Virus record (IMG/VR): IMGVR_UViG_2778261667_000001
Reading direction: 5' to 3' (one strand)
Source: a virus
Taxonomy: Duplodnaviria > Heunggongvirae > Uroviricota > Caudoviricetes
Length of the DNA: 7,140 nucleotides
The notes under the pieces are model-generated. The model saw only the letters and a program-made list of their open reading frames with translations. It had not been told where the DNA came from and searched no databases. Within the stretch, counting starts at the first letter, position 1; the number at the start of each line of letters is the position of its first letter. Made by a program: the position numbers and the translations under genes. Below are positions 2,744 through 6,775 of this stretch, piece after piece.

Positions 2744-3406
2744 ATGGCCAGCACTTTTCAGGTGTTCCCCAAATACAAATGCCACAGCATCATTCGGGCA
2801 TCGAAAATCAAAGATATTGTTATTGTCGGCAAAGCTTATGCGCCCATTTTTGGCAGCATCGAAGTCGTGGAGCCAAAAGGAATGACGCTTCGTGTTGATG
2901 GTGTGTTCTTGGAAAAGTTCCGACCGCAAATAGGAGGATATCTCGTCACTGCTGAAAATGGTTATCTGGTCTATGTGCCAGAGAAAGCATTTGAAAAATG
3001 CTATAGCCGGGTTAACGACGCCTCCGAAAATGGGGTATCGCTCAGCATTGAAGGTCACAATGGGGTGACATTCATTACAGCCAGGGACGTAACTATTTCT
3101 GCTGGCGGTATCGCTACTCTACAAGAAGAAATCGACCTTGAAGCAGCCGACTTTTCTGACGCGCTGATGTGGATGAAGGATGGCAAGAAAGTTGCTCGAC
3201 GCGGGTGGAACGGCGAAGACCAATTCTGCTGGCTGGTTCCTGAAGGACAGTACCCGGCACGAATGGAAGCCATTAAGGGATATTTCCCCGGCGACCTCGT
3301 TCCGTATGGTGCTTATTTCGCCTTAAAAAATGCACAAGGTGTAGTTGTTCCGTGGGTGCCTTCAGTTGGCGACCTGCTGGCCTGTGACTGGTTTGTTGTG
3401 GAGTGA
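2744..3406 (+). CDS. Two-domain hypothetical protein: unknown N-terminal domain fused to a C-terminal DUF2829-like (Tad2-type) domain
   Basis: 220-aa ORF with a good RBS (GGAAGGA at 2732-2738, ATG at 2744). The C-terminal ~80 aa (about 3161..3403) read ALMWMKDGKKVARRGWNG...PYGAYFALKNAQGVVVPWVPSVGDLLACDWFVVE. This matches the pattern I recall for small phage DUF2829 proteins (GKKV.R.GW near the start, D.LA.DW at the end). The N-terminal ~140 aa is unrecognised. Confidence 0.75.
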   Translation: MASTFQVFPKYKCHSIIRASKIKDIVIVGKAYAPIFGSIEVVEPKGMTLRVDGVFLEKFRPQIGGYLVTAENGYLVYVPEKAFEKCYSRVNDASENGVSLSIEGHNGVTFITARDVTISAGGIATLQEEIDLEAADFSDALMWMKDGKKVARRGWNGEDQFCWLVPEGQYPARMEAIKGYFPGDLVPYGAYFALKNAQGVVVPWVPSVGDLLACDWFVVE

Positions 3407-3412
3407 TTTAAC

Positions 3413-4219
3413 GTGGAAAATACCAAGAACATTCAATATCGCCTGCGTAACGGCCTGCTGGTGGATGTTAACGCTGACATGTCTCTGCCGCTCGACACGA
3501 TTGAACGCACTATCATGGCGTATCTTGGCTTTAATGAAGAGCTGAATGAAGAGCATGGCGTAGCCATATGGAGCGATGCAGACAACGGCGCTCGCCGTTA
3601 TATCACTGCCAGAGGCAAAGACTACTCTCTGGAAGAACTGTTTACCCTTGCGCAGTCTTTCGAATGTGTAGCATTGGATCTGTTTAATGATCCTGCTATA
3701 GCGCAACGACTTATCCGCGAGCTTGGGCTGTCCGTTACCCCAATCATCTTTAGAAATGGCAGCTTGACTGGCACATGGCGCGTAGAACGCATCTCAAACT
3801 ACCTTCCATATAACCGACAGTTAAATGGAGTAATCTCCGGCGTTAATCAGCCCGTAGCGTGTGAAAATGTAAACCTAGTTGTCGCTGTTTTGGCAACCGC
3901 ATGTCGCGTTATTGGTTTGACTAAACAGGCATTTATTCATTTCCCAAATGGTGCAGATGGTAGCGCAGAGATTATCGCGTGTGATTTCGAATTTACCTGG
4001 ATGCTACGAGAATATCTGGACAAAACAGTATTCCGTGCCGAAGAACTGGATATGTATATCACGTCAACGATTCCTGATGATGTGCGAGCTGAAGCAATCG
4101 CTACAGCCAGGGCTAAATGCCGTGCGGCGATTGCAGAACAGGCCAAAGAAGAACAGTCCGATGAAGTCGCGGCAGATGTGGAAGCAGAGGTAGCGGAGGA
4201 TGCTGATGCTGACGCCTAA
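3413..4219 (+). CDS. Hypothetical protein with a strongly acidic C-terminal tail
   Basis: 268-aa ORF. The first start codon in frame is GTG at 3413, two codons after the upstream TGA and in the same frame, with no obvious SD, so the start is uncertain. The last ~30 aa (EQAKEEQSDEVAADVEAEVAEDADADA) are very acidic. The 3' end overlaps the next gene by 20 nt. Confidence 0.65.
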   Translation: MENTKNIQYRLRNGLLVDVNADMSLPLDTIERTIMAYLGFNEELNEEHGVAIWSDADNGARRYITARGKDYSLEELFTLAQSFECVALDLFNDPAIAQRLIRELGLSVTPIIFRNGSLTGTWRVERISNYLPYNRQLNGVISGVNQPVACENVNLVVAVLATACRVIGLTKQAFIHFPNGADGSAEIIACDFEFTWMLREYLDKTVFRAEELDMYITSTIPDDVRAEAIATARAKCRAAIAEQAKEEQSDEVAADVEAEVAEDADADA

Positions 4220-5306
4220 AAACATCACCGAATTACCAGAGTGGAGAGAGCTGGTAAGCAAATATAGCCATGACTGGGCATTAGCAGCAGAAGAGTTGAT
4301 GGGTGTTAAGTTAACCCACCAGCAAAAGCTAATTGTTGAGGCGATTCAACAAAAAGGTTCAGCAGTCAGCGTCACCACTCCTGAAGGGATAGGCCAAAAG
4401 ACGGTTATGGCTATAATTAGTATTCTTTATACAATCCTGATGCCTGAGTCTAAAACGGTCATTGTTTCCCCAAAGTTCTATAATTGTCGCAGGCAAGTTA
4501 TCCAATACATAAGTACGTATTGGGATAGAGTCAGTAACAGAATCCCATTGCTGGGAGAATATTTTAAAGTCGACGGAAACGGCATCACTCATCGTTACCG
4601 GGAATATTGGGGCTGCGAAATTAAGCCATATCACCGAAATTATGAGGAAGGTTTCGGTGGATATTATGCTGAACATCTTTTAATCATTGTTACGGAGGCG
4701 GCTCTTGCTGGCGATCGGCTATTCAGCATGTTAAGAGCATCGTTAGTAAGTGACGATTCACGTATACTTTTAATGTCCGCTCCTTCAGAGGAGGAGCATG
4801 GACACTTTTACGATTCCCATCATGGTCGTGCAAAATCTGAAGAAAATCCATGTGGTATTTATACAGCCATCAAGTTGAACGCAGAAGATACCCCCATTAT
4901 TTCTCAAGGTTATCTTGATAACATTGCAGAAATATATGGTGGTAAAAATAGCGATTACTACCGTCGTATGGTTCTTGGTGAGTTCCCTGGTATTCGGGAG
5001 GCTGTTCTTGAATCAGATATGCCGAAAACAATGCGCTTTACGATGCATGATGGTAGTGAATGGACAATGCCATTACTAGTGATAGCCCGGCATCATGCAC
5101 AGCACCACGCCAAAAAACATGGCGTTACAACATTAGAGTGGTTGAAATCGCACACCATTCCACTCTTCACTGCAGATCACAATGCTATCGTTGAGTGGGC
5201 AAAAACAATTCCGTGGGAGAATGTCGCTGAATACGCCAACATGCTAAAACCGCCGAAAGACAGGCAAGAAATTAGCTGGCTGACAGCAGAAAAAATCATC
5301 GAGTGA
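4200..5306 (+). CDS. Terminase-large-subunit-like ASCE ATPase domain protein (no nuclease domain, divergent Walker motifs)
   Basis: 368-aa ORF; ATG 4206 is the more likely start because GGAGG at 4195-4199 sits 6 nt upstream of it. Motif order and spacing fit a terminase ATPase domain: Walker A-like PEGIGQKT (aa 61-68), Walker B-like LLIIVTE (aa 160-166), coupling motif-like LLMSAPS (aa 190-196), and YYRRMVLGEFPG near aa 253-264. The Gly before the Walker A Lys is Q and the Walker B Asp is T. The remaining ~100 aa are too short for an RNaseH-like nuclease domain and show no acidic triad. Confidence 0.7.
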   Translation: MLMLTPKNITELPEWRELVSKYSHDWALAAEELMGVKLTHQQKLIVEAIQQKGSAVSVTTPEGIGQKTVMAIISILYTILMPESKTVIVSPKFYNCRRQVIQYISTYWDRVSNRIPLLGEYFKVDGNGITHRYREYWGCEIKPYHRNYEEGFGGYYAEHLLIIVTEAALAGDRLFSMLRASLVSDDSRILLMSAPSEEEHGHFYDSHHGRAKSEENPCGIYTAIKLNAEDTPIISQGYLDNIAEIYGGKNSDYYRRMVLGEFPGIREAVLESDMPKTMRFTMHDGSEWTMPLLVIARHHAQHHAKKHGVTTLEWLKSHTIPLFTADHNAIVEWAKTIPWENVAEYANMLKPPKDRQEISWLTAEKIIE

Positions 5307-5310
5307 TAGT

Positions 5311-5342
5311 AAAAAGCCCGCCTGGTTGAGCGGGCTTTTTTA
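5311..5342. terminator. Bidirectional Rho-independent terminator
   Basis: Seen in sequence: AAAAA-GCCCGC-ctggttga-GCGGGC-TTTTTT. A 6-bp GC stem with an 8-nt loop is flanked by an A-tract and a T-tract, 5 nt after the stop of the 4200..5306 gene, between convergent blocks. Confidence 0.75.
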
Positions 5343-5498
5343 TGCGCCTTAAATCACAGGTCTATCATCAAACATCAACTGGAATGAGTGAGGAATCGAC
5401 CACAAGCAACGCCCCTTGCAATATGCCTTCGCGGTTTTCGAGTAAACAACTTAGCGCGGAATCAGTATTCGCCACAAGATGTAAAAAGTCCACCAGTG

Positions 5499-5765
5499 TT
5501 ATGGTTCGCATTTCCATATGGTGTTCTGAACGCCAGTACCGGGCGCGAGATGGGGGTTAGCGTTCGCGCTATGCTGATATACGGCTTTAGACTTTCCATA
5601 TTGCTGACAGGCTTTATCTGCGGTTTTTTGCAGGCTATCCAGCCCATACCAGCCATCTGACTGGATGCTTACCTTTTCACCGTCATTGTATTGCACCATC
5701 GCACACCCAGATATAGCCAGTATCGCGCCGACAATAACGCTATTCCATAAAACTCTATGCAACAT
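5499..5765 (-). CDS. Small putative lipoprotein (about 88 aa)
   Basis: Taking ATG at 5765 as start, the N-terminus MLHRVLWNSVIVGAILAISGCA has a basic n-region, a hydrophobic core and a lipobox-like ISGC. The mature part would be ~65 aa with two more Cys. The ORF track start at 5771 is a TTG two codons upstream. Confidence 0.5.
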   Translation of the reverse strand: MLHRVLWNSVIVGAILAISGCAMVQYNDGEKVSIQSDGWYGLDSLQKTADKACQQYGKSKAVYQHSANANPHLAPGTGVQNTIWKCEP

Positions 5766-5769
5766 ATAC

Positions 5770-5800
5770 AAAAATCCCCTCTGTGAATTGAGGGGATTTT
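5770..5800 (-). terminator. Hairpin with T-tract, candidate intrinsic terminator or attenuator for minus-strand transcription
   Basis: Seen in sequence, plus strand: AAAATCCCCTC-tgtgaatt-GAGGGGATTTT (11-bp perfect stem with a 7-bp GC-rich core). On the minus strand the stem is followed by TTTTTGTAT and then the ATG at 5765, so the 3' half (GAGGGGA) could also serve as that gene's SD. Confidence 0.5.
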
Positions 5801-5834: not shown

Positions 5835-6587
5835 TTAATCAGCCTCCAGTGGCAATAACGCCTTAGCCATTTCATGAATCAGCATGGCATCAATGACGCC
5901 TAGCGTATGGCCCGGCTTAATCTTTAATGCGGCCTCAAGATAGCCTCTTTCCAGAGTGGTTTTTACGCTTTTCCTGGGCGCTTGTTGGGAACTATCCGGA
6001 AGATCCGGATGGTTGCCAGCCTCATAAGCTACCCGCAACCAGTGCATGAATGTTTCCGCAGACACACAACCGCAGTCCACATCAATTTCCCCGCGTTGCT
6101 GTTCCAGCCATTGCTCAAAATCTAACTTGTAAGCCTTACTTTCAAGTTCATCACCATTGGACTTGACTTTCTGAGACGCTATGCGAGCTGCTTCATACTG
6201 TTCACGAGTGACAACCGATGTAAACGCACTGCGATCAAGGTCACTGATATCGCAAATAATGCCATCCAAGGAATAATTCTTTGATGATTGGTAATTTTTA
6301 TGGCGCGTACCAAAAAGAACCATAGCGCGACTACTACCTGGCATCGTAATGGATAGATGGCAAAAATCTTTTCCATCAGGCCATCCACGCCCCTTAGATA
6401 ATTCCTTCACTAACAAGTCAATCAGTGTCATAGCGTTACCATCCTTGCAAGGCGCTAAAGCTATTTTGGCAAGCTCCAATACGTCATCTGCTGTGTATCC
6501 AGCACCGTGACCATACATTTCGATACGGGAAATAATATCTGAAATACGCTCTTTAGTGATTCTTGTCATAGTTTTATTTCCTTGCAT
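5835..6587 (-). CDS. Hypothetical protein (244-250 aa)
   Basis: Long intact minus-strand ORF. Both ATG 6587 (AAGG 5-6 nt upstream) and ATG 6569 (AAGGAAA upstream, overlapping the upstream stop as ATGA) are plausible starts. No recognisable family. Confidence 0.7.
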   Translation of the reverse strand: MQGNKTMTRITKERISDIISRIEMYGHGAGYTADDVLELAKIALAPCKDGNAMTLIDLLVKELSKGRGWPDGKDFCHLSITMPGSSRAMVLFGTRHKNYQSSKNYSLDGIICDISDLDRSAFTSVVTREQYEAARIASQKVKSNGDELESKAYKLDFEQWLEQQRGEIDVDCGCVSAETFMHWLRVAYEAGNHPDLPDSSQQAPRKSVKTTLERGYLEAALKIKPGHTLGVIDAMLIHEMAKALLPLEAD

Positions 6588-6775
6588 GGTTCGCCTTTAC
6601 GGCAAACAGCTACACGGTCATTTCTTACATTAACCACAGTCACCGTTCCGTCATCGCATTGAATAACGATGAAAGGGTGTTCATTCTCTTTTGTGCAATG
6701 TTGCTGTTCCCCTGCTGTAACAGTGAGGGGGATTAATAAAATCATAATTACTGCGAATTTACTAAATGTTGCCAT
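6566..6775 (-). CDS. Small secreted or periplasmic protein with signal peptide and four Cys
   Basis: 69-aa ORF. The N-terminus MATFSKFAVIMILLIPLTVTAG looks like a Sec signal peptide. The ~47-aa mature part has four Cys (HCTKE, IQCDD, AVCRK, EPCKE). Its stop is coupled to the next gene's possible start. Confidence 0.5.
   Translation of the reverse strand: MATFSKFAVIMILLIPLTVTAGEQQHCTKENEHPFIVIQCDDGTVTVVNVRNDRVAVCRKGEPCKEIKL

Follow-up and report, generated by a model that had tools for sequence, protein, structure and literature searches.

Bacteriophage P1 is among the best-studied phages and is the prototype phage-plasmid. Two of its genes, isaA and isaB, are labelled only as 'IS1-associated', because in the reference P1 genome an IS1 element splits isaB. 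Both were non-essential in a CRISPRi screen of P1 (PMC10695390), P1-like plasmids are known to vary in the isaA-IS1-isaB segment (PMC9603915, PMC6906374), and the annotation of phage D6 describes its orthologue, orf113, as 'similar to P1 gene isaA'. In the literature searched, we found no paper that assigns a function to isaA or isaB; nor did we find there a description of the predicted fold of IsaA, which is without a solved structural neighbour, or of its frequent partner as a putative pseudo-terminase.

The packaging genes pacA and pacB of P1 resemble isaA and isaB in that an acidic-tailed upstream protein ends at a stop codon overlapping the start of a PacB-type ATPase gene, and the tails of PacA-type proteins are acidic in every P1-like element examined. 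The two pairs differ in that IsaA is unrelated to PacA, IsaB is without the Walker residues and the nuclease, and no pac site is present. PacA tails also carry a conserved [LIM]YG[DE][DY] motif (loci L004, 530-1723; L005, 1-644; L010, 1-353; L013, 2-904), which from its sequence is a candidate PacB-docking element. IsaA tails have neither this motif nor aromatic residues, and mimicry of the PacA tail by IsaA is not supported. Folded bodies that dock through a flexible, negatively charged C-terminal tail are known from E. coli SSB, T7 gp2.5 and T4 gp32. IsaA shares with these the combination of body and acidic tail, and P1 isaA adjoins ssb; it differs from them in that no OB fold or sequence similarity was detected and that its tails have no hydrophobic or aromatic tip (0 aromatics). 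Like Ocr and ArdA, IsaA is acidic overall (pI 4.45; 4.85 for the body), and its gene belongs to an early or accessory region of a phage. Unlike them, it has its charge concentrated in a short, variable tail rather than on a rigid DNA-shaped surface, and no structural or sequence match links it to either.

The window analysed here, a stretch of 7,140 nucleotides (IMG/VR record IMGVR_UViG_2778261667_000001), belongs to a D6-like (P1-family) phage-plasmid and lies next to its rox site. Between the rox site and position 4176 it is 94% identical to Escherichia phage D6, and many E. coli plasmids of about 90 kb match it over 80–90% of its length. The features to which we refer are as follows.

135-166: rox site, differing at one position from the canonical D6 rox
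148-175, + strand: promoter-like site TTGGCA-16-TATAAT, near the sigma-70 consensus (11/12 consensus matches), upstream of dre
319-1347, + strand: dre recombinase (Cre-like)
1409-1765, + strand: open reading frame of 118 aa, phrog_1968 (annotated as of unknown function)
1762-2238, + strand: open reading frame
2235-2729, + strand: dUTPase
2744-3406, + strand: Tad2-like/DUF2829 protein, 220 aa, stop codon at 3404-3406
3400-3403, + strand: GGAG Shine-Dalgarno of isaA, 9 nt before GTG 3413, read from the sequence
3413-4219, + strand: isaA, 268 aa, GTG start, orthologue of P1 IsaA and D6 orf113 (PHROG 2326)
4136-4216, + strand: acidic, aromatic-free low-complexity tail of IsaA, codons 242-268 (EQAKEEQSDEVAADVEAEVAEDADADA)
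4195-4199, + strand: GGAGG Shine-Dalgarno of isaB, inside the isaA tail codons
4206-5306 (alternative start 4200), + strand: isaB, 366/368 aa, paralogue of the PacB ATPase domain
5311-5343, + strand: intrinsic terminator, GCCCGC stem followed by a T run, after the last gene (isaB)

The promoter-like site overlaps rox and points into dre, and the genes after dre are separated by gaps or overlaps of no more than 14 nt. Because the genes are packed and are framed by the promoter-like site and a strong terminator, the stretch from dre to isaB looks like one operon, with isaA as its second-to-last gene; site 148-175 is a candidate promoter of this seven-gene operon ending in isaA-isaB. The terminator is kept in relatives from which isaB has been deleted. 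Within the window, no P1 C1 operator was found at up to three mismatches, and an Rfam scan for structured RNA gave no match.

Several of the neighbouring genes have features of their own. The Tad2-like protein has about 90 extra N-terminal residues (phrog_11049) that are missing from the 146-aa D6 orf114, and a Tad2-like gene precedes isaA in D6-type elements and in several P1-type elements (SJ46, RCS47). In all the distant P1-like elements examined (L005, 5137-5406; L006, 2987-3262; L007, 4083-4355; L009, 4641-4952; L010, 4586-4861), a homologue of the 118-aa open reading frame follows the Cre-like recombinase and precedes the IsaA homologue; judged by gene order, it seems to be a companion gene conserved with the recombinase. 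Beyond the operon, on the opposite strand, lie two small genes (5499-5771 and 6566-6775), one of which encodes a lipoprotein signal (LAISGC lipobox, phrog_7757) and the second a signal-peptide-like N-terminus; a terminator-like hairpin occupies 5771-5800 on the same strand. A 250-aa protein, also on the minus strand (5835-6587), has matches to six or more different PHROGs, every one of them confined to a short segment of its own, which suggests a mosaic of small modules.

The 268-aa open reading frame at 3413-4219 is present as the preliminary description had it. Its GTG start is supported by the shared start position of homologues, among them D6 orf113, for which GTG is likewise annotated. 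IsaA matches phrog_2326 with an E-value of 2.5e-134 (residues 1-257 on profile positions 1-263/264) and has full-length homology to D6 orf113 (94% identity) and P1 IsaA (48%; 47.8% by tblastn, E 8e-66), both of which come from the same type of host element; sequences in the databases are 93–94% identical to it. The position of the window gene, at the end of the dre operon, is that of D6-type elements and not that of P1-type elements, where isaA follows ssb; in P1 itself it does so under the C1-controlled Ossb promoter.

The family is small. A profile search of 1.84 billion cluster representatives returned only 40 clusters (at 50% identity), PLSDB holds the family in 473 plasmids, all of them from Enterobacterales, and a scan of genome contigs yielded no relatives. 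By these searches the family is found only in P1-family phage-plasmids. Five distant homologues, with 19–27% identity, are all located in elements of about 90–100 kb that share a common gene order: pacA, pacB, c1 (on the opposite strand), the Cre-like recombinase, the homologue of the 118-aa open reading frame, zero to three small open reading frames, and the IsaA homologue. Given that the same order recurs in five distant elements, we regard isaA as a backbone gene of the P1/D6 supergroup.

No match to IsaA was obtained in Pfam, NCBIfam or PADLOC. The core motifs of the family (NGxLxGxW[RK]VE, GxGK and ELDxY) are present in the window protein; among 25 representatives, L118, W122 and G168 are invariant, and G116, L212, D213 and Y215 are kept in at least 90%. 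Since the conserved residues are Gly, Trp, Leu, Tyr and a single Asp, IsaA is probably not an enzyme but a protein with a binding or structural role.

An AlphaFold2 model built from an alignment of 25 sequences (mean pLDDT 89.5, pTM 0.83) predicts a globular alpha/beta body of about 240 residues, composed of two alpha/beta units (beta-beta-alpha-beta-beta-beta-alpha) and followed by a long helix, residues 222-267, that runs into the acidic tail, over which pLDDT drops to about 72. We ran three Foldseek searches, comparing two models with the PDB and one with BFVD. The final model retrieved no PDB entry at E <= 1e-3, with best query TM-scores of at most 0.18, and the first, weaker model likewise gave nothing significant in the PDB; in BFVD, the sole match of the first model was a fragment of P1 IsaA. 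Weak matches to dsRBD-like, capping-protein and glyoxalase folds (TM <= 0.3) were set aside. As modelled, IsaA has a fold without a solved structural neighbour. We hold the identity and the architecture of the protein to be close to certain; each specific function proposed for IsaA or for the pair has, on our estimate, a low probability.

The acidic C-terminus reported earlier is real. The last 30 residues of IsaA (AIAEQAKEEQSDEVAADVEAEVAEDADADA) contain 12 Asp or Glu, 10 Ala and 1 Lys, for a net charge of -11. Set against the composition of the body, in which Asp and Glu make up 13.4% of residues, 12 or more acidic residues in 30 have a binomial probability of 2.8e-4; a C-terminal 30-mer as negative arose in 17 of 20,000 shuffles, and a 30-mer as negative anywhere in the protein in 788 of 20,000. 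The tail (28 aa, net charge -11) is longer and more acidic than that of P1 (TELRENTTEEVESD) or D6 (…NDTAAEEVE). Across the 25 representatives, the stretch beyond the last conserved helix is 3 to 83 residues long (median 28), low in complexity, rich in Asp, Glu, Ala, Pro and Gln and nearly without aromatics. Its length is 12 residues or fewer in 5/25, and its net charge is -4 or lower in 15/25 and zero or above in 3/25. Because both charge and length vary to this extent, the acidic tail is a recurrent and not a defining trait of the family. No tandem DNA repeat underlies it at a TRF score of at least 30, a GATGCT repeat being too short to register.

The downstream gene had been called terminase-like, and this description holds. 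IsaB aligns with residues 9-266 of P1 PacB at 36% identity (E 1e-55), that is, with the ATPase domain, and matches phrog_2 (E 3e-10); the strongest retained similarity lies in residues 181-260. Compared with the intact IsaB of P1-like phages without IS1, in which isaB lies directly behind isaA as it does in the window, it shows 49% identity. In an alignment with four PacB proteins, the Walker A sequence GTGKS of PacB is replaced by GIGQK, GIGHK, GIGRP or GIGET across IsaB alleles, and the Walker B sequence IIDEA by IVTEA, IVAEA, IVMDA, IIVDS or IVINS. The window protein reads GIGQKT and IVTEA, neither of which fits the pattern of an intact Walker A (GxxxxGK[ST]) or Walker B (hhhhDE). Thus, the Walker A lysine and the Walker B carboxylates are lost, and because the substitutions differ between alleles, catalysis appears to be no longer under selection. 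The C-terminal RNase-H-like nuclease domain is also gone, replaced by a domain of about 95 aa. From its sequence, IsaB is a paralogue of the large terminase PacB with a dead ATPase and no nuclease, and not a working terminase. In some GenBank records it is automatically annotated as 'terminase large subunit'.

The replacement domain (window positions 4992-5303) is common to JK004_35 and SAC gp35, and this distribution marks it as a mobile domain. In Cronobacter phage JK004 it is a free-standing open reading frame beside a DnaB helicase gene (L048, 4001-4297), and Xanthomonas phage SAC carries it as a fusion to DUF1351 adjoining genes for an Erf recombinase, an exonuclease and SSB (L049, 2938-3288). 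A search of a large protein database with the domain returned only fragments.

The two genes are physically interlocked. The preliminary description gave an overlap of 20 nt; the overlap stands, while that length applies only if isaB starts at ATG 4200, and the likelier start is ATG 4206, with an overlap of 14 nt, because the GGAGG abuts ATG 4200 and precedes ATG 4206 by 6 nt. Both the overlap and the placement of the isaB Shine-Dalgarno within the last acidic codons of isaA are kept in three isaB alleles with 49–64% mutual identity, the overlaps being 14, 11 and 8 nt. By this arrangement, isaA is translationally coupled to isaB. The overlap contains no slippery heptamer, and a programmed frameshift fusing IsaA to IsaB was rejected on that ground. 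In the window, isaB immediately follows isaA; it does so too in 16 of 36 D6-like loci from IMG/VR, in one P1-like phage and in all seven plasmids common to both PLSDB tables. Among the loci examined it was never seen away from isaA, in the P1 context after ssb or in the D6 context at the end of the dre operon.

The type of tail, moreover, follows the IsaB allele in 16/16 loci. Tails ending ...VAEDADADA accompany IsaB type 1 (82–99% identity to the window IsaB; four loci and the window), those ending ...KEVADG[DN] accompany type 2 (64% identity; 12 loci), and ...EEVESD accompanies the P1-type IsaB. The body of IsaA reassorts, all four combinations of two body types and two IsaB types having been seen. 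As the tail overlaps the start of isaB, this co-segregation could reflect physical linkage only. IsaB is also far from universal: it is present in 164 plasmids of PLSDB against 473 for IsaA, so that about two thirds of carriers are without it (it accompanies IsaA in 44/125 D6-type and 120/348 P1-type plasmids), and it is absent downstream of IsaA in all five distant homologues. It has been deleted independently at least twice, with junctions corresponding to window positions 4235/5270 and 4224/5264. Both deletions spare isaA, its long tail and the terminator and leave a residual open reading frame of 12–13 codons (L013, about 7801-7900; L037, about 7798-7900). The earlier proposal that the two genes act together thus gains from the overlap, the adjacency and the matching of tail to allele, and loses from the many IsaA carriers that have no IsaB.

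The reading that we favour, to which we give a probability of roughly 0.4, is that IsaA, a non-essential product of the P1/D6 backbone, serves in binding or as an adaptor rather than as an enzyme. Where isaB is present, IsaA and IsaB would be made together and form a complex, of which the acidic tail would be the IsaB-matched part, and the pair would serve as a dispensable modulator or decoy tied to packaging or DNA-end metabolism. The complex itself, argued from gene overlap and allele matching, has in our view a little less than an even chance of existing. An adaptor role with IsaB can be only part of the picture, IsaA being found more often without IsaB than with it; that most lineages carry it alone suggests that IsaA also has a role independent of IsaB. 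Further points against the favoured reading are the possible linkage of tail and allele noted above, the tail-less members of the family, the missing PacA-tail motif, and the fact that the C-terminal domain of IsaB is found in replication and recombination neighbourhoods and not in packaging ones.

The main rival, which we consider possible if rather doubtful, treats the tail as a by-product of its place at a module boundary and IsaA as a protein that works without IsaB. On this view, a conserved backbone would meet a variable cargo slot at the 3' end of isaA, the adjacency of isaB would reflect a recombination hotspot, and the acidic GAR/GAY codons would also supply the purine-rich Shine-Dalgarno and the start region for the next gene while the low-complexity length drifts. 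Such a boundary fits the point at which D6 diverges from the window, precisely position 4176 within the tail, and the standing of the isaA-IS1-isaB segment as a known variable region of P1-like plasmids (PMC9603915, PMC6906374); it also fits the tail variants that arise by short in-frame indels (VAEDADA, EAEDADADA), the integrity of isaA after deletion of isaB and the existence of several tail-less family members. It accounts less well for a tail of about 27 codons, which is far beyond the needs of a Shine-Dalgarno sequence, or for the net-negative tails of 15/25 representatives, some of them distant and without an overlapping downstream gene. Nor would a mere hotspot lead one to expect that IsaB has never been seen apart from isaA despite two genomic contexts.

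It is improbable, in our estimate, that IsaA is an early-expressed counter-defence or host-takeover protein whose acidic surface and tail mimic nucleic acid or block a DNA-binding host protein, with IsaB as add-on cargo. The position of isaA directly after a gene of the Tad2-like (anti-Thoeris) family in D6-type and several P1-type elements would suit such a role, as would an operon that adjoins the rox/lox entry-recombination site, the acidity of the protein throughout and its dispensability in a laboratory host. Against this, PADLOC and the other family libraries gave no match, Foldseek retrieved neither Ocr nor ArdA nor any other mimic, a tail so short and so variable could not imitate duplex DNA unaided, and IsaA is backbone-like in distant elements rather than hotspot cargo. 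The DNA-mimic inhibitor put forward in the preliminary description thus found no counterpart in structure or sequence, and the tail on which it was based is missing in some family members.

An equally improbable variant of the paired reading is that IsaA and IsaB form a 'pseudo-terminase' conflict module, in which a catalytically dead copy of the packaging ATPase, without its nuclease, would be delivered and held by IsaA through its acidic tail and act as decoy or poison. As a decoy, the module might soak up host sensors of the large-terminase ATPase fold (Avs1-3, Upx); as a poison, it might titrate PacA or jam the PacB motor of competing P1-like elements. Terminase-sensing immune proteins contact the ATPase domain and its bound ATP (PMC13601566), and the literature searched yielded no terminase-derived decoy of such a kind.

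Slightly less probable again is that IsaA is an accessory factor of recombination or replication, in which a tail like that of SSB, T7 gp2.5 or T4 gp32, serving self-regulation and partner recruitment, would aid cyclisation by Cre/Dre or processes linked to Ref or SSB. The placement of P1 isaA behind ssb and its C1-controlled promoter points in this direction, and distant elements place IsaA between the Cre-like recombinase and the gene for the RecA-dependent nuclease (Ref); the company that the IsaB C-terminal domain keeps in other phages (DnaB, Erf, exonuclease, SSB) is of the same kind. The protein itself does not bear this out, as Pfam and Foldseek reveal neither an OB fold nor similarity to Rad52, Erf or RecT, and a conserved basic patch is not evident in the alignment.

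The suggestion that IsaA is a divergent small terminase, an analogue of PacA directing a second packaging enzyme, draws on the way in which an acidic-tailed protein followed by an overlapping TerL-like gene mirrors pacA-pacB, and it is largely refuted: comparison with PacA gives a BLAST E-value of 8.2 and an hhalign probability of 0.3%, Pfam, PHROG and NCBIfam contain no terminase-small match, no TerS is found among the top 50 PDB matches of Foldseek, none of which reaches E <= 1e-3, the structure predicted for the 268-aa protein alone has no helix-turn-helix with oligomerisation core, IsaB has neither functional ATPase motifs nor a nuclease, and these elements carry their genuine pacA-pacB pair at another place. 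The idea that isaA contains a pseudo-pac site, corresponding to pac inside pacA, was rejected as well, there being zero TGATCR hexamers in 3413-5306.

Returning to the paired reading, IsaA-IsaB offers a concrete, testable unit, consisting of a backbone IsaA, an apparently dead IsaB and a tail matched to the IsaB allele. If IsaA and IsaB do not interact, the tail would be merely a low-complexity boundary and the finding ordinary. Should the pair modulate packaging, or serve as a decoy for terminase-sensing immunity, it would bear on the spread of phage-plasmids, including the antibiotic-resistance genes that travel with them, and on P1-based delivery tools.
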